DNA of 64,000 nt from Trueperaceae bacterium (GTDB lineage: Bacteria > Deinococcota > Deinococci > Deinococcales > Trueperaceae): NCBI GenBank assembly GCA_965223585.1, contig CBDCWW010000010.1, positions 55,165 through 119,164 on the forward strand. Direction: 5' to 3'. The number at the start of each line of letters is the position of its first letter. The first letter of the stretch is position 1. Below the pieces are notes generated by a model, which searched no databases, was not told where the DNA came from, and saw only the letters and a list, made by a program, of their open reading frames with translations. Shown here in pieces: positions 8,110 to 62,695 of the stretch. The position numbers and the translations under genes are program-made.

Positions 8110-8303
8110 ATTATATTGTTTTCAAACCAAGAAGCCTAGCCAGAGAAAAGCAATAGTTCTTTTATTCAAGCTCGAGAAAAGAAACTACTAGCTTGGTTGA
8201 AATCAGCTTCAAATCAGTGATGTGATTTATATTGCCTTAGTGGGAACGAGCATCACTGGAATTTCGGATGATCTTCTACAGGATCATATCTAAGGAGCAA
8301 GTT

Positions 8304-9125
8304 ATGATAGGTGTTATTAAGCGCCATCCAGTCAGAAGCTACTTTGCTTTGGCCTTTACCATTTCTTGGATCGGCAGCCTGATCGTGGGTGGTGCAAAAT
8401 TACTCCGAGGAGAGTCTTTAAATCCAAATGATCTTTGGCTCATGGGCCTGTTCATGGTAGCCGGACCCAGTGTGGCAGGCATCCTCATGACCTATCTTAC
8501 TGAGGGAAAAAAGGGTCTTCAGGATTTGCTTTCCCGAATGACAAAATGGCAAGTGGGTGTACGCTGGTACAGTGCGCTACTAATTTTCCCGTTTTTTGTT
8601 TTGCTTGTATTACTAACCTTCGCCAAGCTAGTCTCTCCAGAATTTACCCCTACCTTCTTTGCCATTGGCATCTTGATGGGTCTTTTTGCTGGCTTCATTG
8701 AGGAGATCGGTTGGATGGGCTTTGCGTTTCCTAAAATGCAAGTGAAATACAGTATCTTAAGTGCCACACTTTATCTGGGGTTCTTACATGCACTGTGGCA
8801 TATTATGGCAAGCTTTCTAGGAAGCTTTGCAATCTTTGGTGAGTATTGGTTACCCTATTTTCTTGGATTTTCCCTGTTTGTCATAGCCTTGCGTGTCCTT
8901 ATAGTATGGGTTTACATTAACACTAGAAGCCTTTTATTAGCCCAGCTTATGCACGCTAGTTCGACAGGATTTTTATCTATTCTTGTACCCATGACTATGG
9001 CACCCGTCTATTGGACTATTTTTTATTCTGTTTATGCTCTTGTTTTGTGTGCTATTGCTGCGCTTGTCATATCAAGGTATGGTAAAACTTTGGTGCAACA
9101 TTCTAATAAAGAAAGTCAAGCGTAA
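8304..9125 (+). CDS. CPBP family (CAAX/Abi-type) intramembrane metalloprotease
   Basis: EEIGWMGF and LHALWH motifs; polytopic. Start moved to the ATG at 8304, which is preceded by AAGGAG. Confidence 0.7.
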   Translation: MIGVIKRHPVRSYFALAFTISWIGSLIVGGAKLLRGESLNPNDLWLMGLFMVAGPSVAGILMTYLTEGKKGLQDLLSRMTKWQVGVRWYSALLIFPFFVLLVLLTFAKLVSPEFTPTFFAIGILMGLFAGFIEEIGWMGFAFPKMQVKYSILSATLYLGFLHALWHIMASFLGSFAIFGEYWLPYFLGFSLFVIALRVLIVWVYINTRSLLLAQLMHASSTGFLSILVPMTMAPVYWTIFYSVYALVLCAIAALVISRYGKTLVQHSNKESQA

Positions 9126-39440: not shown

Positions 39441-40072
39441 AGATACCACCACCTGAGGTGGTGGCTTATTTTATTGCCCCTAGAAGGTGGCATGTTACAT
39501 CTACCTTAACCCTCCTTTCCCTAACCTACATTTATTCCTCTTCCTGTTCCTTCTCTTTCTCCTTTTTCTCTTGCCATTTCACATACTTCCTTATCTTTTC
39601 TTCATCCAATCCTACTGTACTTATGCAATACCCTCTACTCCACAAATGCCTTCCCCAATACCGCTTCCCTAACTGTTCGTATCTCTCAAACATTCTTAAC
39701 GCTAACTTCCCTTTCAAGTATCCCATTATGTCTGACAAGCTATACTTTGGCGCTACAGACATCACCAGATGAACATGATCCTCCTGTACATTTAATTCCA
39801 TTACTTCTACTCCGTCCTTGTATCCTAGCAACTGATAAACAGCATTATTTACGTAATCTCCTATCTCTCCTTTCAATATCTTATATCTATACTTTGGACA
39901 AAACACCACGTGATACTTACATTCGTATATAGAATGTGACAACTTCTTAAATCTTTTATTATTATTCATGTGTACCTCCAGAATTTCACCTTCTAGGGAG
40001 GTACATTTTTACCCAACTTTACTACTCGACTGGTAAAACCCCTAATTGCACCACTACCATAGGTAGTGGTTT
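39441..40072 (-). mobile_element. IS200/IS605-family insertion sequence, copy 2
   Basis: Same end architecture as copy 1: hairpins at ~39445-39465 and ~40050-40070, with CCCTAGAAGG / CCTTCTAGGG. Its TnpA is only moderately similar to copy 1's. Confidence 0.75.
39532..39969 (-). CDS. tnpA: IS200/IS605-family Y1 (HUH) transposase TnpA
   Basis: YHVVFCPKYR, DHVHLVMSVAPKYS, LWSRGYCISTVG. GGAGG SD present. Confidence 0.85.
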   Translation of the reverse strand: MNNNKRFKKLSHSIYECKYHVVFCPKYRYKILKGEIGDYVNNAVYQLLGYKDGVEVMELNVQEDHVHLVMSVAPKYSLSDIMGYLKGKLALRMFERYEQLGKRYWGRHLWSRGYCISTVGLDEEKIRKYVKWQEKKEKEKEQEEE

Positions 40073-41727: not shown

Positions 41728-41858
41728 TATGTCAGAAAAAGTCCTACATAATGTGTCAGAGTTTTACCGATTAGTCAGGAAGAAGTAATAATCTAGAATA
41801 GAATAGTTCTAGGTAGCAAATGCTTTTAAGCAACTACTCTTTCAAAAGGAGTAAATCC
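41728..41858 (+). promoter_or_regulatory. Dispersed upstream cassette, copy 3
   Basis: TATGTCAGAAAAAGTCCTACATAATGTGTCAGAGTTTTACCGATTAGT..CTAGAATAGAATAGTTCTAGGTAGC..TTTTAAGCAACTACTCTTTCAAAAGGAG, then the GTG at 41859. Confidence 0.7.
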
Positions 41859-42248
41859 GTGAATAAGTTAAGTGGTAAAACTAAACAATTTCTTAAAGAC
41901 TCTCTGGGCTGGGGTTTTATTCTCTGGCTCATCGGCTACGGTCTTGGCATTATTCTTTTCCCAATTGTGCCAATTCCCTTAATTGGCTGGATCATTATGC
42001 CGGTTGGAGTAGCTATAACGCTTTGGGTATTATTTAAGAAAGTAAAAGGAGATTCGTTTCAGTATTTTGCTCTGCTCGCAGTAGTTTGGGTGCTAATAGC
42101 TATTGTTTTTGATTATTTTTTCCTTGTTAAGGCTTTCCAACCAGAAGATGGATACTACAAGCTGGATGTATATCTATATTATGCTTTGACTTTTGTTCTC
42201 CCTCTTGTGGTCGGTTGGTACAAAAAAAGATCTGCAAATGCATCTTAG
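41859..42248 (+). CDS. Hypothetical 4-TM membrane protein
   Basis: The GTG start lies 7 nt after AAAGGAG. The ORF-track ATG at 41820 lies inside the cassette. Confidence 0.5.
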   Translation: MNKLSGKTKQFLKDSLGWGFILWLIGYGLGIILFPIVPIPLIGWIIMPVGVAITLWVLFKKVKGDSFQYFALLAVVWVLIAIVFDYFFLVKAFQPEDGYYKLDVYLYYALTFVLPLVVGWYKKRSANAS

Positions 42249-42380
42249 GATAAATAGGTCTTCTAAAAAGGCCTTAACGTACTAGCGCTGTATAGGGCAT
42301 AAACTATTTAATGCTCGAGTTCAATACAAAAGGAGATCAAAATACAAGAACTATCACTACTTTCACAAATCAGCCTATAC

Positions 42381-42782
42381 GTGCTACTAACACTGATGGG
42401 TCTACTTACCCTAATCATTTGGGGTTGGCAAATAATGGTACTTCAGGGTAAAGCAATAAAGAATGCCGATGGATCAACAGACGATTGGCACGAGCAGAAG
42501 ATCTTTTACGGTATGGCTTTTGCTGACATATTTCTGGCCTGCCCTGCCTGCATTGCAGCTATTGTTCTTATATTTATAAGCCCCCGTTGGGGCTACTACC
42601 TGCTGATTTGGATCAGTTTTTGGTTTGTTTGGGCAAATATTATGACAACGGCAACCAGCCTACGGTTTGAGAAACCTAAATTCACTCTGATGTGGTTTAT
42701 ATCATTCCCTTTTGGTGCACTTGTCGGATTAGCAACAGTTGTGTGGACAGTAGTCCACTTTGACACCATTTACCTTCCGTGA
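42381..42782 (+). CDS. Hypothetical membrane protein
   Basis: 133-aa hydrophobic ORF from a GTG. A strong AAGGAG at 42329-35 has only ATC/ATA in-frame codons nearby, so the true start is uncertain. Confidence 0.4.
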   Translation: MLLTLMGLLTLIIWGWQIMVLQGKAIKNADGSTDDWHEQKIFYGMAFADIFLACPACIAAIVLIFISPRWGYYLLIWISFWFVWANIMTTATSLRFEKPKFTLMWFISFPFGALVGLATVVWTVVHFDTIYLP

Positions 42783-42804
42783 ATACCTATCAGGAGGAGC
42801 AAGT

Positions 42805-43239
42805 GTGAATATTGTCTGGGGTGTAGTTCTAATTATTTTTACCCTGATTGTGTGCTGGCTGGGGCAAATTATCACTACCATAGCACCAACACTGGCTAGA
42901 CGCTTAGGGATCACCGAGTCTGAAGCTGATGTAGATCCAGCATTTTTTGCAGATGGTCGTGGCGAGGCCATTTGGGATGCGCTAATACTCTGGACACTTC
43001 CAGTTGCAGGCGTATTGCTTATTTTTAAAAACCCGTGGTGGGCCTACTTTGGACTGGTTGGTGGCGGTATGTACCTATACTTTGCTGGGCGCGGCATAGC
43101 TCAACGTCTGGTCATGCAACGTCGTGGCATTCGGATTGGCAAACCATCACTACTGAAGGTGTACTATGTAGTGCTTGTGCTTTGGGGCCTGATTGCTTTG
43201 GTTACAATTGTGATGGCGGTGGTGGCATTACCTTTATGA
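42805..43239 (+). CDS. Hypothetical membrane protein
   Basis: The GTG at 42805 lies 7 nt after AGGAGG. 4 TM segments. Confidence 0.45.
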   Translation: MNIVWGVVLIIFTLIVCWLGQIITTIAPTLARRLGITESEADVDPAFFADGRGEAIWDALILWTLPVAGVLLIFKNPWWAYFGLVGGGMYLYFAGRGIAQRLVMQRRGIRIGKPSLLKVYYVVLVLWGLIALVTIVMAVVALPL

Positions 43240-45555: not shown

Positions 45556-45684
45556 GTAATTCAGGAGAAGTTGTTGCATGAAGATTGTCAGAGAATCAAG
45601 AAAACCCCCGTTATGGGACTTGGCATCACGCACATCCTTCAGAACCAAGGTGCATCATGACAACATTTTCTTATGGGACGGCCT

Positions 45685-46932
45685 ATGAAAATAGCTCTTC
45701 TTACGCTTGGCACGCGGGGTGACACTCAACCTTTTATCGCTTTGGGTAAGGCGCTTAAAGCACGTGGCCACCAAGTTGTGTTGGGCGCACCAGAGAACTT
45801 CCAAACTTGGATCGAAGAACATGGTCTCGCCTATCGCTCAATCGGGGTCGATATGCAGGCTTTCGTTCAGTCCTTGGAAGCACGCAAGGTTATGGCTGGC
45901 AACGTATTCGCCATGGCCCGAATGTGGCGTCGAACCATCGTCCCGTTAACCCGCAAGTCTTTGGAAGCAATTTGGGAGACTGCGCGTGATGCCGATGTCA
46001 TCGTTTATCATCCGAAGACTGCTGGGGCGACCGACGTGAGTGAAGCGACCGGGGCCTCTCTCTTCCAAGCCGCCCCCTTCCCCATCTTCCCAACCAAGGC
46101 CTTCCCGCTGTTTGTGTTTCCCGGCACCTACAGCCCATGGCTCAATCGACTCACCTACGAGGTTCTCATCTTCTCACGGTTGCTCTTCTTGCCCACCGTA
46201 AACGACTGGCGCAACAACATGTTGGGGCTTAAGAAAGTATCGCTGTTCAGTCAGGCACGCACTGCCAAACAGCAAAGCTCAGGGCAATTATGTGCCGTCT
46301 CACCAACCGTTGTGCCTAGCTATCCCGCCACCGACTCAGAAAATATTCAGACGACCGGCTATTGGTTTCTCGATGAGGGTCACGATTGGCAACCTGATGC
46401 CACACTAACGCAGTTCCTCAAAGACGGCGATCCGCCGGTCTACATTGGGTTCGGCTCCATGACAGTGAAGGATCCCATCAGGCTCGCGGAGACCATAGTT
46501 GAAGGTGTGCGCCACGCCGGAGTGCGCGCCATCCTAGCGACTGGGTGGGGTGCGATGGGAAAGATCAATGTTCCTGAGACAATGCACGTCATTGGAGGAG
46601 CTCCCCATAACGCACTCTTCAAGCATGTCTCGGCCGTCGTTCATCATGGTGGAGCGGGTACGACCGCTGCTGGTCTTCGGGCCGGGTTACCGGCGTTGAT
46701 ATGTCCGCTAACGGTTGATCAGCCGTTCTGGGGCCGCCGGGTCCATGCGCTGGGATGCGGGCCCAAACCACAACCGTTGAAGCGTCTGCGGTCAGGCCAG
46801 TTTGCGGAAGGACTGGTGGACTTGATCGAGACGAAGCGATATCGCACCTGCGCTGAGGAGGTAGCTAGGGCTATCACAAAAGAAGAGGGGACCTCTCGAG
46901 CGGTCGAGATAATAGAGGCAGTGAGAAAATGA
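45685..46932 (+). CDS. GT1-family glycosyltransferase (MGT / sterol-macrolide glucosyltransferase-like)
   Basis: MKIALLTLGTRGDTQPFIALGKAL N-terminus and HHGGAGTTAAGLRAGLP nucleotide-sugar motif. Visibly GC-rich relative to its flanks. An alternative ATG lies at 45673. Confidence 0.8.
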   Translation: MKIALLTLGTRGDTQPFIALGKALKARGHQVVLGAPENFQTWIEEHGLAYRSIGVDMQAFVQSLEARKVMAGNVFAMARMWRRTIVPLTRKSLEAIWETARDADVIVYHPKTAGATDVSEATGASLFQAAPFPIFPTKAFPLFVFPGTYSPWLNRLTYEVLIFSRLLFLPTVNDWRNNMLGLKKVSLFSQARTAKQQSSGQLCAVSPTVVPSYPATDSENIQTTGYWFLDEGHDWQPDATLTQFLKDGDPPVYIGFGSMTVKDPIRLAETIVEGVRHAGVRAILATGWGAMGKINVPETMHVIGGAPHNALFKHVSAVVHHGGAGTTAAGLRAGLPALICPLTVDQPFWGRRVHALGCGPKPQPLKRLRSGQFAEGLVDLIETKRYRTCAEEVARAITKEEGTSRAVEIIEAVRK

Positions 46933-47068: not shown

Positions 47069-47194
47069 TATGTCAGAAAAAATCCTACATCATTTGTCAG
47101 AGTTTTACTGATTTTCCAGCAAAAAATGATCACCTAGAATAGGATAGCTCTAGGTAGCTTTTAAGCACACTATTCTTTGGAAAGGTGTTTGATA
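47069..47194 (+). promoter_or_regulatory. Dispersed upstream cassette, copy 4
   Basis: TATGTCAGAAAAAATCCTACATCATTTGTCAGAGTTTTACTGATT..CCTAGAATAGGATAGCTCTAGGTAGC TTTTAAGCACACTATTCTTTGGAAAGG, then the ATG at 47195. Confidence 0.7.
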
Positions 47195-47572
47195 ATGTTA
47201 AAACAAATTTTACTTTATGTCGGTGCTGCTCTACCCATTATTTGGGGAATTGCACATCTTTTCCCAACCAGATCAGTTGTGCAAGGATTTGGTAAGATTT
47301 CAGTAGATAATCGCCGGATTATCACTATGGAATGGATTGTCGAAGGTGTTGCTTTGATCTTTATCGGGGTATTGGTGGCTGCTGTAACCATAGTGGCTGA
47401 GCATCAGGTTACTTCACTTATTGTGTACTTGCTAAGTGCTATAACTTTGCTCATTTTGGCCTTAGTATCGCTCTTTACGGGTTTCAAGATTAACTTTTTC
47501 CCATTCAAGCTGTGTCCTGTGCTTTTCACAACTTCTGCTATTCTAATCACCATAGGGGCTTTAGGCTTTTAA
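47195..47572 (+). CDS. Hypothetical 4-TM membrane protein
   Basis: The ATG at 47195 follows GAAAGG. The ORF-track TTG start lies in the cassette. Confidence 0.5.
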   Translation: MLKQILLYVGAALPIIWGIAHLFPTRSVVQGFGKISVDNRRIITMEWIVEGVALIFIGVLVAAVTIVAEHQVTSLIVYLLSAITLLILALVSLFTGFKINFFPFKLCPVLFTTSAILITIGALGF

Positions 47573-47586
47573 AGTAAGGGCTTGAA

Positions 47587-48399
47587 ATGTCAAGTATGCG
47601 AAAAGTAGTGTTGTTTGTCTTGCTTGCCTATGGTTGGTCATGGTTCTTTTGGATACCATCTGCACTAATGGCTAAAGGACTCTTGGTGCCTACTTCACTC
47701 GAGAGCTTCTTCAACTTCGCCTTTAAATTAGGGGGATGGGGTCCTTTACTGGCTGCTTTTCTTGTGACATATTTGGATTTGAAAAAGGAAGGCGTAATTG
47801 ATCTGCTAAGGCGGGGAGTGAAGTACCGATTTGGATTGATATGGTATCTAGTAGCCCTATTTCTTTTTCCCATCCTTATAGGTGGCTCATTGTTTTTAGC
47901 TGCCCTCACTGGGGAACCTCTGCCTGAGTTGGAAGTGCTTGCTGAGCCAATCACAATTCCCATTTCTTTCCTAGTTGTCTTTTTCATGACGGGCCCATTG
48001 CAGGAAGAGTTTGGTTGGCGTGGATTTGTCCAAGAACGTCTTCAGAGTCGGTGGAATGCCCTCACCACGAGTATAGTTGTTGGTACAATGTGGGGCCTTT
48101 GGCATTTGCCTCTCTTTTTTGTTCCAGAGATGGGGTTCTACTATGAGCGACCGATCTTAGGTTTGATACTGTCAACAATACTTGTGTCAATCCCCATAGC
48201 ATGGATTTACAATAATACTGGTCGAAGTGTTCTGGCTGCTATGTTAATGCATGCTTCATTCAATTGGTCACACTTCCTATTTCCAACTCTTAATTCAGAT
48301 CGAGCAAGTTTGATTTTGTTTTTGCTCGAGGCATTCATAGCAGTGATTATTGTTTTGATTTGGGGTTCTAAGACATTGACTAGGGGACCTCAAAAATAG
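47587..48399 (+). CDS. CPBP family intramembrane metalloprotease
   Basis: QEEFGWRGF, WGLWHLP, MHASFNW motifs. Confidence 0.8.
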   Translation: MSSMRKVVLFVLLAYGWSWFFWIPSALMAKGLLVPTSLESFFNFAFKLGGWGPLLAAFLVTYLDLKKEGVIDLLRRGVKYRFGLIWYLVALFLFPILIGGSLFLAALTGEPLPELEVLAEPITIPISFLVVFFMTGPLQEEFGWRGFVQERLQSRWNALTTSIVVGTMWGLWHLPLFFVPEMGFYYERPILGLILSTILVSIPIAWIYNNTGRSVLAAMLMHASFNWSHFLFPTLNSDRASLILFLLEAFIAVIIVLIWGSKTLTRGPQK

Positions 48400-48402
48400 C
48401 AG

Positions 48403-48533
48403 TATGTCAGAAAAAGTCCTACATAATATGTCAGATTATTACTGACTAGTTGGAAAAAAGTAATCGCTTAGAATAAATAGGATAGCCCTAGGTTTTATCT
48501 TAGTTGCCCACACTCAAATGAAAGGAGTGCTCT
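48403..48533 (+). promoter_or_regulatory. Dispersed upstream cassette, copy 5
   Basis: TATGTCAGAAAAAGTCCTACATAATATGTCAGATTATTACTGACTAGTTGGAAAAAAGTAATCGCTTAGAATAAATAGGATAGCCCTAGG...AAAGGAG, then the ATG at 48534. Confidence 0.7.
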
Positions 48534-48701
48534 ATGAAATCAGAAAATAGCTCAAGACCCATTCGGGTTGACAATCAAACAGGTGGTATTCTTTGGTGCA
48601 TTGGTTGGTTATTCACAATTGCATTTGCAAAGCTTGTTTGGTGGCAAGCTCTCTTGGCAATTGTGATTTGGCCATATTATCTTGGGGTGGCTGTCAGGTA
48701 G
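48534..48701 (+). CDS. Small (55 aa) two-TM membrane peptide; paralog of 58341..58520
   Basis: Hand translation gives MKSENSSRPIRVDNQTGGILWCIGWLFTIAFAKLVWWQALLAIVIWPYYLGVAVR. AAAGGAG SD present. It is below the ORF-track size cutoff. Confidence 0.6.
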   Translation: MKSENSSRPIRVDNQTGGILWCIGWLFTIAFAKLVWWQALLAIVIWPYYLGVAVR

Positions 48702-48736
48702 TAAGCAAATTAGACCTTGATCCATAGCCCCATAAC

Positions 48737-49576
48737 ATGATTAGGAAATACCCCTTAACTTCCTACTTTATTTTTGCGACACTGTTCACCTCTGTTCTCC
48801 TTTTACCACTAATCCTTTTTAGTCAAGGTCTGAGCACTTGGGCAGTGTCACAAGATTGGCATTGGGTGGGTGCGCTAGGGCCTATTATGGCGGCTTGCAT
48901 TGTCGTAGCTTCACTCTACGGAAGCTCTGGCCTAACTAATTACTTAACAAGCCTATTTGACACAAGATTCTCACTTTTACTCTTTTTCGTAGCCATTCTT
49001 CCTCTACTACTCTTTCTGATTGTTCAACCCCTCTTGCTGCTTCTAGAAAGGGAACAAGTCAATATCTTAGGAGAGCTTTCTTTTGGCTGGTGGTTAAGTA
49101 CTTTAATTTCATCTCTAGCTTATGGCATAGGAGAAGAGGCAGGTTGGCGGGGGTTTGCTTTGCCACGATTGCAAGCACGTTTCACAGCCTTAACAGCTGT
49201 CATCATATTGACCGTGTTTCACGCCCTGTGGCATCTGCCTTTTTTCTTTTATCGACTCGAGTTTGGCCTAGTAGGTACTGTGGGCTTCTTTATCGGTATG
49301 CTGGCAGGAGCCATTTGTATTTCTTTTTTGTACAATCAGTCAGGCGGCAAGACTTTGTTACCCATTCTTTGGCACACAACTTGGAATGTAGTAAGCTTGC
49401 TCACTTTTGCCACCATTCCCGAGACAGCTTACATTATCAGTACGTTGTTTATAGTTATAGCAGTGGTCATCATCGTTGTCTTCAAACCAAAAAACTTAGC
49501 AAGGAAAGAATTGTATGCTATTAGGGATAGCCATTCTTTGACAGCACCAAAAACTTTAATTGGAACGAAAGGATAA
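48737..49576 (+). CDS. CPBP family intramembrane metalloprotease
   Basis: GEEAGWRGFALP, FHALWHLPFF, WHTTWN. Confidence 0.8.
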   Translation: MIRKYPLTSYFIFATLFTSVLLLPLILFSQGLSTWAVSQDWHWVGALGPIMAACIVVASLYGSSGLTNYLTSLFDTRFSLLLFFVAILPLLLFLIVQPLLLLLEREQVNILGELSFGWWLSTLISSLAYGIGEEAGWRGFALPRLQARFTALTAVIILTVFHALWHLPFFFYRLEFGLVGTVGFFIGMLAGAICISFLYNQSGGKTLLPILWHTTWNVVSLLTFATIPETAYIISTLFIVIAVVIIVVFKPKNLARKELYAIRDSHSLTAPKTLIGTKG

Positions 49577-49585
49577 AAAAGTCAT

Positions 49586-50449
49586 ATGTTAAGCCTCATA
49601 AGGGAATACCCGCTCACAGCTTTTTTTGCCTTTGCAATCGCTATTTCGTGGTTACTCTGGCTGCCTAGAGTGGCAGGGCAGTATGGCTGGATTGGGCCAG
49701 TTTCTCCTTACTGGCACTTTGTTGGCAGCCTTGGCCCCATGTTAGGAGCGCTTATTGTGGCTGGCGTGGTTTATGGGCGAGGAGGGCTCGAGCGCCTCTG
49801 GCAAGGTATGGTAAAGTGGCGGGTCAGCCTTGGCTGGTGGGGAATTGCAGTATTAGGACCTGTTGTGGTCATGCTGCTTGCCATTGTAATTATACGTTTG
49901 ATGGGGAACCCTTGGCCTGAATGGAGGTTGTTAGGCAAAGTTGCTGAGTTTCCGCAGCTAGGCTTTATCGCCCTTTTGATTGCCGAAACTATTTTCTACG
50001 GCTACGGTGAAGAGGTTGGCTGGCGTGGCTTTGCACTGCCTTATTTGCAAAAGAGCTACAGTGCCTTGTGGTCATCGGTGCTGCTAAGCATAGTCTGGTT
50101 CCTGTGGCACACTCCTCTGTTCCTAGTCAATGAAAGCTACCGCCAGATGAATCTGCTTATGCTTCTAGGGTTCTACTTCAGCATTTTGACAGGTGCTATA
50201 CTAATGACTTGGCTTTACAATGGTACAAAAGGCAGTTTGCTGCTATTGGCATTGTTCCACGCTCTTTTAGACATCACCATGATCAACGAAGCTTTGAATC
50301 TTCAGGCGGTTAACCTCATGGGCATGCTGATTACTTTCTGGGGTCTGGCAGCGATCTGGCTGATTATAAAACAAGTAAAAGTCATTTGGGATATTAAGCC
50401 AACACACATCGAATCAAAGCGAGGATCTGATCTGCGCGCTCACGGCTAA
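49586..50449 (+). CDS. CPBP family intramembrane metalloprotease
   Basis: GEEVGWRGFALPYL, WFLWHTPLF, FHALLD. Confidence 0.8.
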   Translation: MLSLIREYPLTAFFAFAIAISWLLWLPRVAGQYGWIGPVSPYWHFVGSLGPMLGALIVAGVVYGRGGLERLWQGMVKWRVSLGWWGIAVLGPVVVMLLAIVIIRLMGNPWPEWRLLGKVAEFPQLGFIALLIAETIFYGYGEEVGWRGFALPYLQKSYSALWSSVLLSIVWFLWHTPLFLVNESYRQMNLLMLLGFYFSILTGAILMTWLYNGTKGSLLLLALFHALLDITMINEALNLQAVNLMGMLITFWGLAAIWLIIKQVKVIWDIKPTHIESKRGSDLRAHG

Positions 50450-50492
50450 CAATATTTGATCCATCATTAGGGCAGAAAATAAGGAGTATAGT

Positions 50493-50699
50493 ATGAGAAA
50501 GCTTGCTAAGCGCTATCCACTCAGAAGCTACTTTGCTTTGGCCTTTACCATTTCTTGGGTCAGCAGCCTAATGGCGTGGGGTGCAAATTTCTTCCGAGGA
50601 GAATCATTCGAACTAAACGATCTTTTTCTCGTCGGCATGCTTATGCTAGCCGGACCCAGACGGTACAGCTTTGGTGCGACATTCTATAAAAAAAGTTAA
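50493..50699 (+). pseudogene. Truncated CPBP protease fragment (5' ~165 nt only)
   Basis: The first ~55 codons closely match the 5' end of 8304..9125 (RSYFALAFTISW..., RGES..ND.., AGP). The match then breaks off and a stop follows. Confidence 0.65.
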
Positions 50700-50715
50700 G
50701 GCAGTCTAAAAAATA

Positions 50716-51549
50716 ATGAAGAGTATAAGACACTCTCAACACTTCTTAACTCAAGATCTTCTTACGATCTCGCAGGGCACCAAAAGGTTTGAGGCTCTGG
50801 CAGTTATTGTAATGGTGTTAATGTTTACTGCTTTCCCACTGCTTCCCTACAGCAGCGTGATTGGCATAGGTATTTGCATTGTGCTTGTGACTGTAGTTAG
50901 TTGGTTCAAGCGTTGGTCAATAGGTGTATCTGTTGGCATGTTTTGCATGGTATGCATTGCGCTTGTCTTGTTGAAGGTGCCCTTTTCCCAACTCTGGCTG
51001 AGCCTTGCCCTTAGCATACAAGTGTTGGTAATAAGAGTTGTGCCTTGGTTGCGTGGAAATGATGCTTGGTTGCGTGTTGGCTCACTGGGAAAAGACATGT
51101 GGTTACTGACAGCAATTTCAGGACTCATGGCTGCCATTGCACTAATAGCTTGGTTTTTACTCCTGCAGCCTAATATCGATGACCTTATAGAGAGCCTCCT
51201 ACCTGACCTAAACCTCGGCTTACTAATTGTGGCTGCTTTACTGTTTTCTATAGTTAATGCAGCAGTGGAGGAAGGTGCATATCGTGGCGTGATTATGGAT
51301 GCCTTAGACAGGTCACTTGGAGCAGGCATTGCAGCGCTTATAATCCAAGCTGTGGCTTTTGGAACATTCCACATTAGAGGTTTTCCACGAGGCTGGTTAG
51401 GCGTTGGCCTTGCTTGTATTTATGGTTTGATGATGGGCATTATACGCAGGCGCACTGAAGGCATGCTGGCACCGTGGATCGCGCATGTTTTTATTGATGT
51501 AGTGATTATGGGCATCGTTATACTCAGTCTAGGCAGCGGCTTGCTTTAA
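50716..51549 (+). CDS. CPBP family intramembrane metalloprotease (divergent)
   Basis: VEEGAYRGV, FGTFH, WIAHVFID motifs, with an extra N-terminal TM region. Confidence 0.7.
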   Translation: MKSIRHSQHFLTQDLLTISQGTKRFEALAVIVMVLMFTAFPLLPYSSVIGIGICIVLVTVVSWFKRWSIGVSVGMFCMVCIALVLLKVPFSQLWLSLALSIQVLVIRVVPWLRGNDAWLRVGSLGKDMWLLTAISGLMAAIALIAWFLLLQPNIDDLIESLLPDLNLGLLIVAALLFSIVNAAVEEGAYRGVIMDALDRSLGAGIAALIIQAVAFGTFHIRGFPRGWLGVGLACIYGLMMGIIRRRTEGMLAPWIAHVFIDVVIMGIVILSLGSGLL

Positions 51550-51588
51550 CTGTGCCTTTACCACCTTCTGACTAGCTTGGAGGATTCT

Positions 51589-52617
51589 ATGACCTACAAA
51601 CGTGTTTTAGTACCTCGTTTTGGTGGTGCTGACATTCTAACCATTGTTGAGGAAGAAGTAACCAAACCTCGAGCAACTGAGGTGCGCATCAAGGTACTGG
51701 CAGCAGGCATTTCATTTGCAGATGTGCTGGTTCGGGAAGGGCTTCATCCCGTGAGGCCACGACCACCTTTTACACCGGGTTGGGATGTCGTGGGTGTGGT
51801 GGACGAACTTGGTGCTGGCGTTAGTGGTCTGACACTCGGACAGATGATCGCTGCCTTGCCAGTCATCGGTGGCTATGCGGAAACGATTTGCTTACCTGCT
51901 GCTGAACTAATACCTGTTCCTGAAGGCGTTGATCCTTGCGAGGCAGTCTGTCTAGTGCTCAATTATATGACGGCCTACCAAATGCTGCACCGCAGTGCAC
52001 ATGTTAAATTCGGCGAAAGTATCTTGATTCATGGTGCGGCAGGTGGGGTAGGCACTGCACTTCTTCAACTGGGACAGCTTGCGGGTTTAAAAATGTATGG
52101 TACTGCCTCGAGTCAAAAGCACGAACTCATCAAGCGCTACGGGGCAACGCCAATTGATTACCGAAAAGAGGATTTTGTCGAGCGTATCCACACTTTGACA
52201 GAAAAGGGCGTGGATGCCGTGTTTGATGGTATTGGTGGCGCACAGTTGCGTCGCTCTTACCAAGCTCTTAGGCGTAATGGTCGCTTAATCGTGTTTGGTC
52301 ATGCTGCTAACCTTGTTTATAAAGCACGCAATCCACTTATAACTCTGTCCACATTGTTAAATACAGCAGCAATCTTCTTGTGGAGCCTTAATATAGAGCA
52401 AAAGCGTGTCAAGCTCTACAGCATTCAAACTCTCAAAAAACAGCATCCTGAGTGGTTTAGAGAAGATCTAAGCAAGTTGCTGAAGCTGCTGGCAGCGGGT
52501 GAAATCAAGCCTATTATTGCTGAATGCTTGTCACTTGATGAGGTAGCTCGAGCTCATAAGATGCTCGAGTCAGCATCAGTGAAAGGCAAACTGGTTCTTC
52601 AATACGGTCTATTTTAA
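51589..52617 (+). CDS. MDR-superfamily quinone oxidoreductase / zinc-type alcohol dehydrogenase-like
   Basis: The ATG at 51589 follows GGAGG. NAD(P) fold HGAAGGVGTALLQL and a GroES-like N-terminal domain. Confidence 0.8.
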   Translation: MTYKRVLVPRFGGADILTIVEEEVTKPRATEVRIKVLAAGISFADVLVREGLHPVRPRPPFTPGWDVVGVVDELGAGVSGLTLGQMIAALPVIGGYAETICLPAAELIPVPEGVDPCEAVCLVLNYMTAYQMLHRSAHVKFGESILIHGAAGGVGTALLQLGQLAGLKMYGTASSQKHELIKRYGATPIDYRKEDFVERIHTLTEKGVDAVFDGIGGAQLRRSYQALRRNGRLIVFGHAANLVYKARNPLITLSTLLNTAAIFLWSLNIEQKRVKLYSIQTLKKQHPEWFREDLSKLLKLLAAGEIKPIIAECLSLDEVARAHKMLESASVKGKLVLQYGLF

Positions 52618-52886: not shown

Positions 52887-53252
52887 TTAAAAACTCATCC
52901 AAAACAACCAACCTCCCAAAATGAGGAGGAGAATGGCTTCAATTGTTTGATGGCTTTTGAACAGTTGCGCTTGTTTATGGATATACTCCGGAAAACCAAT
53001 TTTCATAACTCCCTTGATTAACGTGGACCAACCTAAAATAGTAATAGCAATTCTCCAATCAGCAACCCAAACATTATGTAAAATTACAGTAACTAATCCC
53101 AAGAGTAGCGTGATATAGCCAGTAGATATAACAAAAGCTTTATCTTCAGTCATCTCTATAACCCTGCCCAAATACTTTGCTCCAAGAAAAAGTAGGCCAA
53201 AAATTAGAAAGAAACTGCCTAAAAATCTTGCAAAAAAGATCGAAATTTCCAT
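52887..53252 (-). CDS. Hypothetical 4-TM membrane protein
   Basis: 121-aa hydrophobic ORF directly downstream of cassette copy 6. Confidence 0.5.
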   Translation of the reverse strand: MEISIFFARFLGSFFLIFGLLFLGAKYLGRVIEMTEDKAFVISTGYITLLLGLVTVILHNVWVADWRIAITILGWSTLIKGVMKIGFPEYIHKQAQLFKSHQTIEAILLLILGGWLFWMSF

Positions 53253-55502: not shown

Positions 55503-56231
55503 ATGGAAGCCATATCACAATTTAATCAAGTTATCAATAAAAAAAATTCTGCTGCCTATCTTTTGCAGCTTTTTGTAAACTATTTGATAATTGAAGTCCG
55601 CAAACCGAATATCTTTCTTGTACCTGCACGTGTTTTTCTAGGCATCGGTTGGTTACGTGCTGCCATTGAAAAAGGGGTTTCAGGAACGTGGTTTACTGGC
55701 TCTGAAGTTGAGGCATTTTTACTTGAACACCTCCCCACAATGTCATTTCCCTTTTTTAAAAGTTTGACTACTAACGTTTTTCTGCCACAAGCTGAATTTT
55801 TTGCTTTAATTGTTTTTATAGCTCAGGTATTAGTAAGTTTATCACTTATCTTTGGAGTATTTACAAGACCTGCACTATTAGGCGGTATGTTTATGAACAT
55901 AAGCTTTTTGCTGGCAGGTGCAGTAAATCCTAGCACTTTCTATCTGGTGATTCAGATGCTACTTTTCAACATGAATGCAGGTGAAGTGCTCAGCCTCGAT
56001 ACCTTGAAAAAGCAAGTCCCACTTAAACCACTGATTCACATAAACAGACGTATGTTCCTTGTGTGTGCCTTTGGCTTACTACTTTTAGCAAGCTTGGCTT
56101 TTCCTTATATTCAAGACTTTAGTCCTGAAGGAGCAATTGAAGATACTGCAGCTGTAACAGTGGTACTGCTCAGCATGCTTAGTTCATTCTTGTTAATTAC
56201 TTATTTACGTCTAGGCCAGAAACTAGGCTAG
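55503..56231 (+). CDS. Membrane protein, DoxX/DoxD-like (tentative)
   Basis: ARVFLGIGWLRAAIEKG motif; 5-6 TM segments. Confidence 0.35.
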   Translation: MEAISQFNQVINKKNSAAYLLQLFVNYLIIEVRKPNIFLVPARVFLGIGWLRAAIEKGVSGTWFTGSEVEAFLLEHLPTMSFPFFKSLTTNVFLPQAEFFALIVFIAQVLVSLSLIFGVFTRPALLGGMFMNISFLLAGAVNPSTFYLVIQMLLFNMNAGEVLSLDTLKKQVPLKPLIHINRRMFLVCAFGLLLLASLAFPYIQDFSPEGAIEDTAAVTVVLLSMLSSFLLITYLRLGQKLG

Positions 56232-57268: not shown

Positions 57269-57739
57269 ATGATTATTCTCCAAGACAAAGTCGACATAAA
57301 CACCTCAACTGAGGCTGTATTCGAGTGGCTCGAGCACTTCTGTGAGCATTATCGTGAGTGGCATCCCAGTCATGTGTCGTGTTGCTACCTGCGTGGTAGC
57401 GGGTTACAAGTCAGCACAATTATCCAAATCGAAGAAACTTTGCATGGGAAACTGCATAGATTGCGCCTCCTAGTCACAGAAGTCATTCCCGGCACTCGCG
57501 TAGCGTACCGCATTGCTCCCGGGATGAAGGGTGCCTTCGAGGTAAAGTCAAAAGCTAGCAAGATCTGCTTTGTAGCCACTATCACCATAGGAATCAGATT
57601 TCCCCTACTCGAAGGCCTCATTGATGCGTTACTCTGGAGGGTTTTGGCATCTAGGCTCGCAGCTCTACAAGAGCATATGGCTGAAGAAGGCAAAAACCTT
57701 AAGCGTCTTTTGGAACAGCCTTCAGAATCCCCTAAATAA
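57269..57739 (+). CDS. SRPBCC-superfamily (polyketide cyclase/dehydrase-like) protein
   Basis: 156 aa. N-terminal I.....VFEWL......EWHP pattern and size. Confidence 0.5.
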   Translation: MIILQDKVDINTSTEAVFEWLEHFCEHYREWHPSHVSCCYLRGSGLQVSTIIQIEETLHGKLHRLRLLVTEVIPGTRVAYRIAPGMKGAFEVKSKASKICFVATITIGIRFPLLEGLIDALLWRVLASRLAALQEHMAEEGKNLKRLLEQPSESPK

Positions 57740-57858
57740 ATTTAGGGGAACATTAACTTAAACATTATAAAAGGGGGAGGTCAGGAAGAAGGAGAAGAGA
57801 AATTAAAAACAAAGTTGTTTGATTACATATTAGTTATTGGGCAGGCGCTATTGTCAAT

Positions 57859-58182
57859 TTGTACGCAGCTTTCCGATGGATGTTCCCGCAAGTGTTCCCG
57901 GGTTCAAGTACTGACGTTGGTTACAACTTGGGTATGAAATGGGGAGTAGCCCTTATGCTGGGCTGGGTAGCTCTCTTGATTTGGGCAGATAGGAAACCTG
58001 TAGAACGCAAGGACATCCTTTTACTGACGATCTTTCCAGTCATTACAGGTCTTTTGATCACAACTGTCGTTGCCTTCACCGCTAGTTTTATCTCGACTTC
58101 AACGCTGACCTTCAACTTGGTCATAATGATAATTTTGATTGGGTTAATGGGATTCAGCTATCTGAATGCCCGAAAGAGTTAA
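57859..58182 (+). CDS. Hypothetical membrane protein (start uncertain)
   Basis: Hydrophobic 107-aa ORF from a TTG. The frame is open from 57823 with no canonical start upstream. Confidence 0.35.
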   Translation: MYAAFRWMFPQVFPGSSTDVGYNLGMKWGVALMLGWVALLIWADRKPVERKDILLLTIFPVITGLLITTVVAFTASFISTSTLTFNLVIMIILIGLMGFSYLNARKS

Positions 58183-58219
58183 AGTGATCATTCCATTGGT
58201 CTGCCGGGGAGCATGGTTT

Positions 58220-58340
58220 TATGCAAAAAAAATCCTATATAGCATGTCAGATTTTTACTGACTAGTTGCAAAAAAGTAATCGTCTAGAATGTATAGGATA
58301 GCTCTAAGTTTTAGCTTAGTAGTCCACACTCAAATTGTTT
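58220..58340 (+). promoter_or_regulatory. Dispersed upstream cassette, copy 8 (5' block degenerate)
   Basis: TATGCAAAAAAAATCCTATATAGCATGTCAGATTTTTACTGACTAGTTGCAAAAAAGTAATCGTCTAGAATGTATAGGATAGCTCTAAG. About 90% identical to copy 5. Confidence 0.65.
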
Positions 58341-58520
58341 ATGAAATCAGAAAATAGTTCAAGACCCATTCGAGTCGACAGTCAAACAGGTAGTATTCTT
58401 TGGTTTATTGGTTTGTTATTCACAATTGCATTTGCAAAACTTGTTTGGTGGCAAGCTCTCTTAGCAATTGTGATCTGGCCATATTATCTTGGGGTGGCTG
58501 TCAGGTATAAGGCAAACTAA
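58341..58520 (+). CDS. Small (59 aa) two-TM membrane peptide; paralog of 48534..48701
   Basis: MKSENSSRPIRVDSQTGSILWFIGLLFTIAFAKLVWWQALLAIVIWPYYLGVAVRYKAN. Confidence 0.6.
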   Translation: MKSENSSRPIRVDSQTGSILWFIGLLFTIAFAKLVWWQALLAIVIWPYYLGVAVRYKAN

Positions 58521-58778
58521 ACCTTTGCAAACCCCTGCCATATAAATTCGCTGATGCTCTTAGAGTTGCAATTCAGCATAGGGCAAACCGGTTCAGTATA
58601 ACATATGCTAAAAACGGGGAAGAATTGGACATTTGTGAAATAGTGCTTGGAAAAACCTTGAAGGTCTTGAAGACCTTCAAGGTTTGGGCAACACTTCATT
58701 GCATTCAAGGGTAAACCGAAAATTTATATGTCCATTTTTAAACCATAAGCAGTATAGAAAATAACTAAGGGTGCTTGG

Positions 58779-59798
58779 TTAGGCTTTATTATTATGCTCC
58801 AAAGTTACAACCACGCTTCCCTTTTTATGCCCCGCTTCAACATACCTATGAGCCTCAGCAGTTTGTTCTAAAGGATAGCACCTATCAATCACCGTTTTTA
58901 TCGCCCCCTTCTCAGCAAGATCTTTAATGACCATGAGGCCTTCTATCTTTTCGTTTGACAACGCACAGATAACTTTCTTACTGCTAAATACTGAAGTCCA
59001 TAGCATCTGAACAAGCTGCCTTGTCTTAAAACTGGCTAAAAGGTAGCGCCCATTAGGTGTTAAAGAGTTTTTACAACGCAAAAACGACGATTTACCTAAA
59101 ATATCAAAGATCAAGTCATAGGTCTCACCGCTTTGGGTAAAATCCTCTTTGGTGTAATCAATAACTTTATCCGCACCTAAAGCTTTCACTAGCTCTACTC
59201 TTGGAGTACTGCATACCCCTGTCACATTTGCACCATAGTGTTTGGCAAGCTGTACAGCTGCTGACCCTATCCCTCCTGACGCACCATTGATAAGGACCTT
59301 TTGACCGGGTTGAATGTTCACTTTTCTGAGGAGATTAAGTGCGGTTAGTGCTCCATAAGGCACAGCAGCAGCTTCGGCGTAGCTCATATTGGTGGGTTTG
59401 AGTGCTACTAAGCCATCTTCAGGCATACATAGATACTCGGCATTCGCACCCATTTTAGAACCGCGATAGGCAAAAACTTGGTCACTTACTTTAAACTTCG
59501 TAACATCTTTGCCTACAGCTTCAATTTCCCCGGCTAGCTCACCACCCAAGATTGTTTTGTTTTTCCTTGGTTTGTTAAAGCCGAACTCGAGCCTTGCAGG
59601 AAGCCATAGGGGTGTAGGCATAGAAAAGGTGCGAGGCGTGAATTTTCTTTTGATGTCTCTAACAGTAATATCCCCAAAGTTTACGGGTGTTGCACGTACT
59701 CTTATCAGGATTTCATTGTCCTTCGGGGTGGGTTTAGCGATCTCTTTGAGTTTAAGGACATCGGGTGACCCATATTCGGTAAATACAATTGCTTTCAT
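58779..59798 (-). CDS. MDR-superfamily NAD(P)-dependent oxidoreductase
   Basis: NGASGGIGSAAVQLAK. The ATG at 59798 follows GAGGAAA. Confidence 0.8.
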   Translation of the reverse strand: MKAIVFTEYGSPDVLKLKEIAKPTPKDNEILIRVRATPVNFGDITVRDIKRKFTPRTFSMPTPLWLPARLEFGFNKPRKNKTILGGELAGEIEAVGKDVTKFKVSDQVFAYRGSKMGANAEYLCMPEDGLVALKPTNMSYAEAAAVPYGALTALNLLRKVNIQPGQKVLINGASGGIGSAAVQLAKHYGANVTGVCSTPRVELVKALGADKVIDYTKEDFTQSGETYDLIFDILGKSSFLRCKNSLTPNGRYLLASFKTRQLVQMLWTSVFSSKKVICALSNEKIEGLMVIKDLAEKGAIKTVIDRCYPLEQTAEAHRYVEAGHKKGSVVVTLEHNNKA

Positions 59799-59806
59799 GT
59801 TTTTCC

Positions 59807-60064
59807 TCAACTTTCTTTAACTTGTTTTATGAATTCATCCTCGGGCTCAAAAGAAAAAACCTCTTCTAGTGGCAAGCTAAAAACATAAGCAATGCGAAAT
59901 GCCAAATCTAGTGTTGGAGAGTATCTTCCTTTTTCAATAGCGACAATGGTTTGCCGTGTTACCCCCACTTTGTCTGCCAATTGCTGTTGGGTCATTTCAT
60001 CAAAGTGAAAGCGCAATTTCCGCACATTGTTGCTCACTCGGTGTTTACTATCTTTTTTACCCAT
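59807..60064 (-). CDS. XRE-family HTH transcriptional regulator (YozG-like)
   Basis: MTQQQLADKVGVTRQTIVAIEKGRYSPTLDLAFRIA. Confidence 0.8.
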   Translation of the reverse strand: MGKKDSKHRVSNNVRKLRFHFDEMTQQQLADKVGVTRQTIVAIEKGRYSPTLDLAFRIAYVFSLPLEEVFSFEPEDEFIKQVKES

Positions 60065-60065
60065 A

Positions 60066-60512
60066 CTAAAAACCTCTGCGATAAAAGTAGATCTGTGAGG
60101 CACTTCCAACAAGCTGTGCTAAAAAGAGCGAGACAAGAAGTATGTGAAACATTGTTGACAATGGTTGCTTGATGACCAGTGCTGCCATCGCCAGCAAAAA
60201 GCCCGTGCCAAACATGTAAAAGGTATTCCGTGTTGCACGAAGTTCGATAAGCTTGTCAAATTCATCGGTGATATCGGGAGCTTCTTCCTTGGTTGCGATG
60301 GTGTTAATGATGCTGAAAAAGATGTACATGATGATACTGACAACAACTTGTATAGGAATCAAGACTAAAAAGGCAATTCCCCAAAAGCGTAAGAATGTTG
60401 TTAAATCTGTGCTGCTTGCTTGATCCATTTGCAATAGAAAGGTGTAGTAGAACCAAGCCACAACTAAGGTGACTAGAAAATAAACAATTGCTCGTTTTTC
60501 TTGAAATGACAT
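60066..60512 (-). CDS. Membrane protein, DUF2178-like (tentative)
   Basis: 4 TM segments with a central DEFDKLIELRA motif. The pairing with a YozG-like HTH gene is typical. GGAGG SD before the ATG at 60512. Confidence 0.4.
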   Translation of the reverse strand: MSFQEKRAIVYFLVTLVVAWFYYTFLLQMDQASSTDLTTFLRFWGIAFLVLIPIQVVVSIIMYIFFSIINTIATKEEAPDITDEFDKLIELRATRNTFYMFGTGFLLAMAALVIKQPLSTMFHILLVSLFLAQLVGSASQIYFYRRGF

Positions 60513-60523
60513 AATTCCTCCAT

Positions 60524-60745: not shown

Positions 60746-60756
60746 TATCACCAAAC

Positions 60757-62582: not shown

Positions 62583-62695
62583 GACTTTCCTCCATACTTG
62601 TTTGATGCTTTGTTGCCTTGTGCCATTGTGATGACGATTTTGTCTCGAGCGCATTTTGTCTCGAGATAGCTAGAGTGTTTTCCTTGAGAGGACAT
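62579..62695 (-). CDS. Candidate 38-codon upstream ORF translationally coupled to the DrrA-like gene
   Basis: Hand translation gives MSSQGKHSSYLETKCARDKIVITMAQGNKASNKYGGKS. AAGGAG lies 5 nt upstream. Its TGA overlaps the ATPase ATG (ATGA). Confidence 0.35.
   Translation of the reverse strand: MSSQGKHSSYLETKCARDKIVITMAQGNKASNKYGGKS

Follow-up and report, generated by a model that had tools for sequence, protein, structure and literature searches.

What brings four CPBP protease genes and the gene of a tiny hydrophobic protein together in the genome of a Trueperaceae bacterium? The initial annotation read this locus as either an immunity repertoire or a set of proteases with their substrate or inhibitor. 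We analyzed the 64,000-nt stretch of DNA that contains it (hereafter the window), in which all the features described below lie on the + strand. Candidate genes were assigned to the CPBP family (PF02517) when they scored above the Pfam gathering cut-off of 22.4 bits. Four array genes scored 46.7-61.3 bits, and the array is, as first described, a tandem of four intact CPBP genes plus one 5' fragment within 4 kb. CPBP1 (47587..48399, 270 aa, E 1.1e-16) resembles MmRce1, a glutamic intramembrane endopeptidase, and presents the motifs EEFGWR, WGLWH, and HASFN. It is followed by CPBP2 (48737..49576, 279 aa, E 8.7e-13; EEAGWR, ALWH, and HTTWN), CPBP3 (49586..50449, 287 aa, E 3.9e-12; EEVGWR, WFLWH, and HALLD), and CPBP4 (50716..51549, 277 aa, E 3.8e-16; EEGAYR, FGTFH, and HVFID), whose domain lies at the C-terminal end. 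The signatures EExxxR, [FW]xxxH, and HxxxN/D are found in all four genes, which are therefore predicted by motif to be catalytically intact. Since the genome holds 15 PF02517 genes in 5.79 Mb, the presence of four of them within 4 kb far exceeds chance.

The sixth CPBP gene of the window, previously placed at 8304, was recovered as an ORF at 8268..9125 (285 aa, E 2.7e-8, 34.4 bits) in which 8304 is an internal ATG that could serve as an alternative start. Its motifs are variant: in EEIGWM, both glutamates are kept and the arginine is replaced by methionine, and both histidines are conserved with no final Asn/Asp after the last one. Its clade in the tree shows the corresponding pattern, EExxx[M/T] with the final Asn/Asp missing. 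The 68-aa ORF at 50493..50699 is identified as a 5' fragment of a gene of this type because it matches the N-terminal part of the 8268 product at 60% identity over 55 aa (BLASTP, E 2e-20); it was also aligned at the DNA level with the sister genome and with window positions 8250-8530.

The array genes and the 8268 gene thus resemble the CPBP/Rce1-like endopeptidases, and the EExxxR, xxxH, and HxxxN motifs of CPBP1 align in register with those of MmRce1 (PDB 4CAD, E 1.1e-10). None of the CPBP genes, however, is an equivalog of MmRce1: their scores with NCBIfam NF041656 were 38-65 bits, where 425 are required, and the resemblance is one of broad subfamily fold. CPBP4 yielded partial NCBIfam matches that were all far under their cut-offs. 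Bacteria are not known to carry out CAAX prenylation, and the substrates of these proteins must therefore differ from those of Rce1. CPBP membership does not by itself imply proteolysis, as illustrated by LnsB, which takes part in lipoprotein N-acylation (PMC7387801), and by CflP, a noncatalytic member (bioRxiv 10.64898/2026.10.04.756536).

The array did not arise by recent duplication, one of two origins that had been considered for it. Its members were 27-36% identical in pairwise BLASTP comparisons or could not be aligned at all, in agreement with the divergence noted initially, and their branches in the tree are long. CPBP2 is closer to homologues elsewhere (68% and 51-56% identity) than to its neighbor CPBP3 (36%). 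For these reasons, the array is best described by its sequences as a set of distant paralogs. CPBP4 had no significant BLASTP match to CPBP1-3 and is assigned to another CPBP subfamily. The CPBP2-CPBP3 pair was found again on a metagenomic contig of 60% GC (L115), where the CPBP3 homologue (76% identity) directly follows the CPBP2 homologue (68%).

Comparison with close relatives shows that the set of CPBP genes varies between genomes. This genome presents 15 CPBP genes versus 7 and 3 in two congeners. CPBP1 and CPBP3 each have an ortholog with 92% identity in the sister species (L010), and the remnant at 50493-50699 is orthologous to a remnant of that genome. Neither congener possesses an ortholog of CPBP2 or CPBP4, and the third congener contains none of the array members. 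In the case of CPBP2, the difference from the sister genome, which lacks the gene, is a precise indel of 859 nt (48705-49563). CPBP3 orthologs were detected in 2 of 81 Trueperaceae genomes (none in the 79 others). Synteny places the whole array of the sister species at the position of the 8268 gene, where it adjoins genes for FtsX/MacB transporters and for secreted PAN and FG-GAP proteins. The array therefore rearranges between sister species and its genes are accessory; they are absent from most relatives, and the possibility that they are simple housekeeping paralogs can be set aside. Relative to three nearby genes that we assumed to be native-like (GC3 of ~0.29-0.34), the array presents a GC3 of 0.41-0.54 (0.535 for CPBP3). 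These properties, together with the recurrence of the CPBP2-CPBP3 pair on L115, are signs of horizontal transfer of the CPBP genes of the array.

Two copies of a short cassette precede the genes of the locus. The cassette consists of a core (TGTCAGAAAAA-TCCTACAT-N4-TGTCAGAGTTTTACTGA), a -35-like hexamer, 16-17 nt, TAGAAT, and a conserved 5'UTR. The first copy (47069..47176; repeat family D2, alignment, and motif search) carries the promoter-like sequence TTTCCA-16-TAGAAT at 47113-47140, and the second (48403..48533) ends with the AGGAG-N6-ATG of the peptide gene. The initial annotation had taken the cassette as the peptide's own, which does not hold: the core motif occurs eight times in the window relative to zero expected from shuffled sequences, and about 45 times genome-wide, upstream of many unrelated genes. 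The cassette is thus, by these criteria, a lineage-specific promoter-like element. Its properties recall promoter propagation and putative mobile promoters, in that one cassette (here ~75-130 nt), equipped with boxes of the -35/-10 type and followed by a conserved 5'UTR, stands before many unrelated genes, and the duplication of the cassette and peptide gene as one unit, described below, is a further similarity. A point of difference is that this cassette is associated with CPBP genes to a marked degree: 7 of the 15 possess a copy on the same strand within 4 kb upstream, among them those of a second operon on contig C23, in which a cassette precedes two CPBP genes and a hydrolase gene.

The first gene downstream of the first cassette, TM131 (47195..47572), encodes a multi-pass membrane protein of 125 aa (131 aa if translated from the TTG at 47177) and is separated by 14 nt from CPBP1, the next gene downstream. 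TM131 matched no Pfam or NCBIfam family. It belongs to a very large family with 2961 homologues at E<=1e-3 and 63-73% identity across phyla; CPBP genes were absent from its contexts elsewhere. At the other end, a gene for an NAD(P)H quinone oxidoreductase-like protein of the PIG3/zeta-crystallin type (51577..52617; TIGR02824, E 1.2e-62) starts 27 nt past CPBP4 with no terminator-like site detected between them, and the transcription unit may end with it. Intergenic gaps are 9-43 nt and no convincing terminators were found inside the units. Spacing and cassette positions together point to two probable transcription units: cassette-TM131-CPBP1 and cassette-peptide-CPBP2-CPBP3-(remnant)-CPBP4-(quinone oxidoreductase).

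The peptide gene (48534..48701) encodes a hydrophobic microprotein of 55 aa and is preceded by an AGGAG Shine-Dalgarno sequence 6 nt before its start. The ORF was as initially described, but its two-transmembrane topology is only putative: members of the family present two short hydrophobic stretches of ~15-17 residues each, and AlphaFold2, run on an alignment of 102 sequences, predicted a single unbroken helix over residues 14-54 (mean pLDDT 75). Searches of Pfam, NCBIfam, PHROGs, PADLOC, and PDB returned no match, consistent with the first impression that the peptide lies outside recognized families. When homologues were clustered, the family amounted to 140 groups at 90% identity and 501 at 50% identity; it was found at 224 species loci, mainly in Chloroflexota and Actinomycetota, and its members remain 51-76% identical across several phyla. 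Residues W21, G24, F27, W46, Y48, L50, and G51 are invariant and the C-terminal end reads WPYYLGxAVR. Values of dN/dS range from 0.07 to 0.21, which indicates purifying selection, and the protein almost always stands alone, with no fusions among the clusters at 50% identity. Alignments and substitution patterns thus indicate that the microprotein represents a real, independent, and widespread protein family, so far unnamed and for the most part unannotated.

A duplicate of the cassette and peptide gene is found at 58219..58525 (repeats D1 and D3, and sequence comparison). The repeat of ~90% identity reported near 58 kb was recovered as two aligned segments, 48408-48519 with 58224-58335 (86%) and 48533-48718 with 58340-58525 (91%). 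The two peptide genes differ with a dS of 0.21. The second copy has lost the Shine-Dalgarno sequence and the stop codon, which yields a 4-aa extension (YKAN), and carries the changes G18S and W25L at two nearly invariant positions; no CPBP gene lies nearby.

If the microprotein were a substrate or an inhibitor of these proteases, the initial annotation reasoned beforehand, the two should be associated in other genomes. A CPBP gene was found within 500 nt in only 1 of 80 peptide loci from other genomes, the sole case being the sister species, and 4 of the 80 had one within 10 kb; these frequencies match the genomic background. None of six peptide loci examined in other whole genomes by Pfam search presented a CPBP gene nearby. 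The immediate neighbors of the peptide loci are highly diverse (108 Pfam families among 114 proteins). The reading as a protease/substrate or protease/inhibitor set is therefore not supported, and in its genomic contexts the peptide family shows no linkage to CPBP genes beyond this genus.

Because this widespread family is unlinked to CPBP outside the genus, a patchwork is the likeliest reading of the cluster. On balance, we consider it probable that the locus is an assemblage of accessory membrane genes acquired horizontally by a low-GC member of the Trueperaceae (Deinococcota) and placed under a shared promoter, with no dedicated protease-peptide system. Judging from spacing and cassette positions, the cassette would join the array genes into one co-regulated set, probably an envelope/membrane stress or defence regulon, in keeping with the envelope-related functions found in the wider window. 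The CPBP proteins would then cut membrane-embedded peptides or proteins while the regulon is on, and their targets could be membrane-active peptides of foreign origin or else membrane proteins of the cell, damaged or otherwise. The microprotein would work alone in the membrane, tied to the proteases by the shared promoter only. TM131 and the 55-aa microprotein are two unrelated small membrane proteins, each conserved in its own right.

An alternative that we regard as unlikely, but worth weighing, is an Abi-type immunity repertoire in which each divergent CPBP confers protection from a distinct bacteriocin or membrane-active peptide, whether self-produced or released by competitors. In Firmicutes, Abi/CPBP proteins such as PlnI and SkkI confer bacteriocin self-immunity. 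Abi-mediated immunity reportedly required the catalytic motifs in the 2010 work of Kjos et al., and these motifs are all intact in the array. Systems of this kind have been summarised (bioRxiv 10.1101/2023.06.07.544157), and the array resembles them in its multiple divergent accessory CPBP genes, which are clustered and vary among close relatives. Diverse, horizontally acquired genes that differ between sister species are also what conflict genes would look like. Moreover, the wider window is rich in antimicrobial-peptide-resistance and envelope-stress functions (an MprF-like LPG-synthase transmembrane protein, many MacB/FtsX ABC permeases, and an OmpR-type regulator), and the sister-genome array abuts transporter genes of the same FtsX/MacB type. 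Unlike in Firmicutes Abi loci, however, genes for bacteriocin structure, export, or regulation were not recognized here and the host is a member of the Deinococcota. The ORFs scanned with Pfam between 45 and 60 kb of the window included none recognizable as a bacteriocin structural gene, a C39 exporter, or a modification enzyme and none with a recognizable double-glycine leader, a search that small unrecognized bacteriocin genes could escape, and PADLOC yielded no matches. The sole small peptide is a conserved protein that spans phyla, unlike fast-evolving bacteriocins, and other phyla also commonly have tandem CPBP arrays in genomes where no bacteriocin locus is known.

Rather less likely is a dedicated pair at the level of the genus, in which the microprotein would be processed by CPBP2 or CPBP3, or would modulate one of them, by analogy with MroQ-AgrD or with a myxosortase and its sorting signal. 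Peptide/CPBP processing pairs include MroQ-AgrD of Staphylococcus and MrtJ/JDVT-CTERM, and in both the gene of a small hydrophobic protein stands right before a co-oriented CPBP gene. The same arrangement is observed here: in the window, 35 nt separate the peptide gene from CPBP2, and in the sister genome 26 nt separate it from CPBP3, in each case with both genes in the same orientation and with no terminator. Since one peptide paralog was retained directly upstream of a CPBP gene in both species, a lineage-specific functional link may exist. However, accepted pairs are near-universally adjacent, JDVT-CTERM/MrtJ in 16 of 17 cases (bioRxiv 10.1101/2023.06.07.544157), whereas here only two sister species show the adjacency, which is lacking at 79 of 80 other loci. 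The second peptide paralogs of this genome and of the sister genome, and the single copy of the third congener, are not near CPBP genes, and the CPBP2-CPBP3 homologues of L115 lack such a peptide. In addition, alignments of the family revealed neither a conserved Cys nor the terminal motif of known CPBP substrates, and the invariant residues fall within the hydrophobic helices. Much the same low probability applies to the view that the 55-aa family is a new widespread class of conserved membrane microproteins that this genus has newly recruited, through capture of the promoter cassette, to serve the CPBP2/CPBP3 proteases encoded right after it as a substrate or a modulator; if true, the locus would show a protease-microprotein module at the very moment of its emergence.

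It is very improbable that the peptide is a membrane toxin, of type I or bacteriocin-like, with immunity provided by the adjoining CPBP genes. Its small size and strong hydrophobicity, together with a putative promoter and 5'UTR of its own, would suit such a role. Type I toxins and bacteriocins have a narrow range and evolve fast, unlike this protein with its cross-phylum identity and purifying selection; it lacks a leader peptide, ~79 of 80 loci are without a candidate immunity or antitoxin partner, and Rfam searches of the window and of 20 peptide loci gave neither an antitoxin RNA nor a riboswitch. Least credible of all is the idea that the CPBP genes encode myxosortase-like sorting proteases for C-terminal signals of secreted proteins encoded nearby. 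It is favored by a weak similarity of CPBP1 and CPBP4 to NCBIfam Mrt families (NF040914, NF033192, and NF040589) and by the secreted PAN and FG-GAP proteins encoded beside the array in the sister genome. However, all Mrt scores were 20-27 bits against cut-offs of 75-130, and the C-terminal ends of the neighboring secreted proteins show neither a hydrophobic tail nor a Cys-containing signal.

Finally, CPBP genes elsewhere frequently have other small membrane proteins encoded just before them. This could hint at a general relationship between these proteases and small membrane proteins that a family-by-family test would not reveal.

The tandem CPBP array described in the initial annotation was recovered by Pfam searches. 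Four intact genes matched the membrane-protease family PF02517 well above its cut-off: CPBP1 (47587-48399), CPBP2 (48737-49576), CPBP3 (49586-50449) and CPBP4 (50716-51549). These genes lie on the forward strand, as do an upstream ORF for a membrane protein of 125/131 aa (TM131; 47177/47195-47572), the 55-aa peptide ORF (48534-48701), a 68-aa ORF (50493-50699) and the ORF of a quinone-oxidoreductase-like gene (51577-52617). The 68-aa ORF is the proposed fragment and shares 60% identity with the N-terminus of the gene at 8268-9125, which also matches PF02517 and represents the sixth copy (hereafter the 8268 gene). Since the whole genome (5.79 Mb) carries 15 PF02517 genes, the presence of four of them inside 4 kb is not due to chance. 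Other phyla commonly carry tandem CPBP arrays as well (genomes G003 and G006).

The motifs EExxxR, [FW]xxxH and HxxxN/D are kept in all four array genes, and the MmRce1 structure (4CAD) aligns with CPBP1 with the three motifs in register. None of the four genes reached an NCBIfam equivalog cut-off. The array proteases are probably active. To our knowledge, CPBP proteins are among the least understood bacterial intramembrane proteases, with substrates known for only a handful of them. A variant clade is formed by the 8268 gene and three genes located elsewhere in the genome (C23:907199, C23:908131 and C4:137512). Its members retain both glutamates and both histidines, but the arginine of the first motif is replaced by methionine or threonine (EExxxM/T) and the Asn/Asp of HxxxN/D is missing, which constitutes a variant active site.

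The array had been described as diverging, and the array members are indeed old, distant paralogs rather than products of recent duplication: CPBP1-3 and the 8268 gene share 27-36% identity with one another, and CPBP4 could not be aligned to any of these by BLASTP. In the phylogenetic tree, CPBP1 and CPBP3 each pair with an ortholog from the sister genome (92% identity), and no ortholog is seen for CPBP2, CPBP4 or the 8268 clade. A third genome of the same genus contains only three 'core' CPBP genes, and orthologs of CPBP3 were found in 2 of 81 Trueperaceae genomes. Homologues of CPBP2 and CPBP3 (68% and 76% identity, respectively) occur in the same order, separated by a 15-nt gap, on a metagenomic contig of 60% GC (L115, 674-3395). 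The array genes have a GC content at third codon positions (GC3) of 0.41-0.54 vs 0.29-0.34 in three neighbouring genes that were taken as a native-like reference. Together, the low mutual identity, the patchy orthologs, the pair on L115 and the raised GC3 suggest that the array is an assembly of horizontally acquired paralogs.

CPBP2 and CPBP3 are best read as an old two-gene module. The pair on L115 lacks the peptide; a gene for a 168-aa membrane protein overlaps it on the upstream side, and an RDD-family gene (PF06271) comes next downstream. Two other contexts (L118 and L120) likewise have RDD genes close to CPBP2-type genes. CPBP-CPBP-RDD may represent a conserved module, perhaps one that involves a CPBP heterodimer.

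Comparison with the sister species revealed several rearrangements. CPBP2 is missing from the sister genome through an exact 859-nt indel, which we read as a deletion in that genome. The gene order there is hydrolase (w7432), TM131, CPBP1, peptide, CPBP3, a CPBP remnant, w9034 and FtsX permeases, and the array occupies the position where the window carries the 8268 gene. The remnant (11101-11376 of the sister locus, L010) is an 8268-type CPBP gene with an in-frame internal deletion: the N-terminal 55 aa are fused to the C-terminal 36 aa at the short repeat ATGG.A.CC, and the whole catalytic core is removed. The 5' end of this remnant is orthologous to the window's fragment at 50493. These rearrangements suggest that the array is a hot spot of turnover. 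Directly upstream of the array, a GT28/GT1-type glycosyltransferase gene (45673-46932) has a GC content of 0.56 and a GC3 of 0.60 in a genome of 39% GC, which sets it apart as a clear foreign island.

The promoter-like cassette upstream of the peptide gene, which the initial annotation had assigned to the peptide as its own, is shared with other genes. The core motif was found in eight copies in the window, against none in shuffled sequences, and in approximately 45 copies genome-wide. These copies are concentrated: 16 are on the window's contig and 11 of the 12 copies of contig C23 fall within a stretch of ~160 kb. Their alignment revealed two palindromic blocks, a -35-like hexamer, a spacing of 16-17 nt, TAGAAT and a conserved 5'UTR ending in AAGGAG. 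The palindromes read TGTCAGA...TACTGAC. In the window, the genes found behind a cassette encode a PAN-domain secreted protein, small membrane proteins, an SDR protein, TM131 and both copies of the peptide. Seven of the 15 CPBP genes of the genome are located at most 4 kb downstream of a cassette on the same strand. A second operon outside the window (C23:906917-910078) presents the arrangement cassette, CPBP, CPBP and alpha/beta hydrolase, and its two CPBP genes (287 and 299 aa) belong to the 8268-type clade. The cassette is a putative shared, regulated promoter that would have spread by promoter propagation. A first idea that it was part of an IS200 transposase (39532-39969) was dropped, and neither the window nor a set of 20 peptide loci gave Rfam matches that would indicate riboswitch or sRNA control.

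The 55-aa ORF encodes a real protein whose family is undescribed. In a word-indexed search, 140 clusters were found at 51-76% identity, and 224 loci were found when one genome per species was scanned. The family is mostly distributed in Chloroflexota (Anaerolineae and Dehalococcoidia) and Actinomycetota (Coriobacteriia), and is scattered in other phyla. Within Trueperaceae, it was found in all three genomes of the window's genus; three further genera each gave a single match, of which one was marginal. An exhaustive profile search of 1.84 billion representatives extended the family to 501 clusters (50% identity). With few exceptions, the matches are 45-130 aa long and carry the domain at their extreme C-terminus. 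No informative domain fusion was found among these representatives; one match of 1567 aa was confined to a short repeated stretch and is considered spurious. Most copies are not annotated. Across 102 aligned sequences, seven positions do not vary and another fourteen show conservation of 90% or more; dN/dS within the genus is 0.07-0.21. The family possesses two hydrophobic stretches of ~15-17 residues each, and AlphaFold2 modelled the peptide as one long helix (residues 14-54), not as a hairpin. As first noted, the peptide matches no recognised family: no match was returned by Pfam (including at E<=10 with 20 members), NCBIfam, PHROGs or PADLOC, by profile searching against PDB, or by looking for its motifs in the literature.

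The proposal that the peptide is generally associated with CPBP genes did not hold across whole-genome searches, HMM searches of 80 loci, Pfam annotation of neighbours and clustering. A whole-genome PF02517 search of six other peptide-carrying genomes identified a CPBP gene beside the peptide in the sister species only. Using two iterated in-house CPBP HMMs on 80 peptide loci (1.17 Mb in total), a CPBP gene was found within 500 nt of the peptide in one locus and within 10 kb in four, and the density of ~1 per 300 kb is the background level. The 114 immediate neighbours of the peptide matched 108 Pfam families, none of them present in more than five loci, and the two CPBP matches both came from the sister species. 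When the neighbours within 5 kb were clustered all against all, no recurrent partner emerged; the largest group, ABC ATPases (16 of 80 loci), was at about chance level. TM131 was also considered as a conserved partner of CPBP and was rejected, as its contexts elsewhere are without CPBP genes.

These results suggest that the locus is best read as a patchwork of accessory membrane genes under one promoter cassette. Distant CPBP paralogs, including the CPBP2-CPBP3 tandem pair, would have been gathered by horizontal transfer; the propagating cassette would tie the acquired array into a host regulon, and the microprotein would be independent of the proteases. The locus could illustrate how CPBP arrays arise, through horizontal assembly and promoter-cassette wiring. 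A candidate immunity-like or envelope-protective role fits the window context. Apart from the array, the window encodes an OmpR-type regulator, an MprF-like LPG-synthase transmembrane protein and many permeases of the MacB/FtsX type together with ATPases, as well as secreted PAN and FG-GAP proteins and several small membrane proteins without a Pfam family. No bacteriocin genes were recognised among the ORFs scanned between 45 and 60 kb, and PADLOC returned no matches. A peptide-CPBP relationship specific to the genus may exist, yet it lacks comparative support. Within the genus, no CPBP gene lies near the second peptide copies of the window and of the sister species or near the single copy of the third congener. 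Finally, the protease/substrate reading was not borne out, with no partner family emerging from the co-occurrence tests, and the locus supplies no new CPBP substrate pair.

A duplicate of the cassette and peptide had been described further downstream and was confirmed at 58219-58525 (86-91% identity). This second copy may be decaying: its peptide gene (58341-58520) has lost the AGGAG Shine-Dalgarno sequence through a deletion of ~13 nt as well as its stop codon, resulting in a YKAN extension, and two of its nearly invariant positions are changed (G18S and W25L). The first half-site of its cassette is degenerate. Around this copy (57269-62654) lie genes for an SRPBCC protein, for an ABC-2 transporter and for an HTH_3 regulator accompanied by a small membrane protein. 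An actinobacterial locus in which the peptide occurs twice (L005 and L069) has the same set, with DUF2178, HTH_3, ABC and SRPBCC genes. This shared pattern recurs in that one organism only and is probably a coincidence.

Two conserved membrane families unnamed in Pfam and NCBIfam emerged from this analysis, the 55-aa microprotein and TM131 (~3000 homologues). Each is a candidate for family curation and for laboratory study as a small membrane protein. TM131 is a multi-pass protein with 2961 homologues at E<=1e-3, which are 63-73% identical across phyla (e.g., Desulfobacterales and Ignavibacteriaceae) and variable in gene context; neither Pfam nor NCBIfam has a model for this family. Small multi-pass membrane proteins are unusually dense in the window (41820-43239, 52887-53252, 55503-56231 and 57859-58182) and some of them lie behind cassettes. 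None has a significant match in Pfam, NCBIfam or PHROGs, and those at 55503-56231 and 57859-58182 present weak, sub-threshold Pfam similarities (DoxX and Bax1-I).
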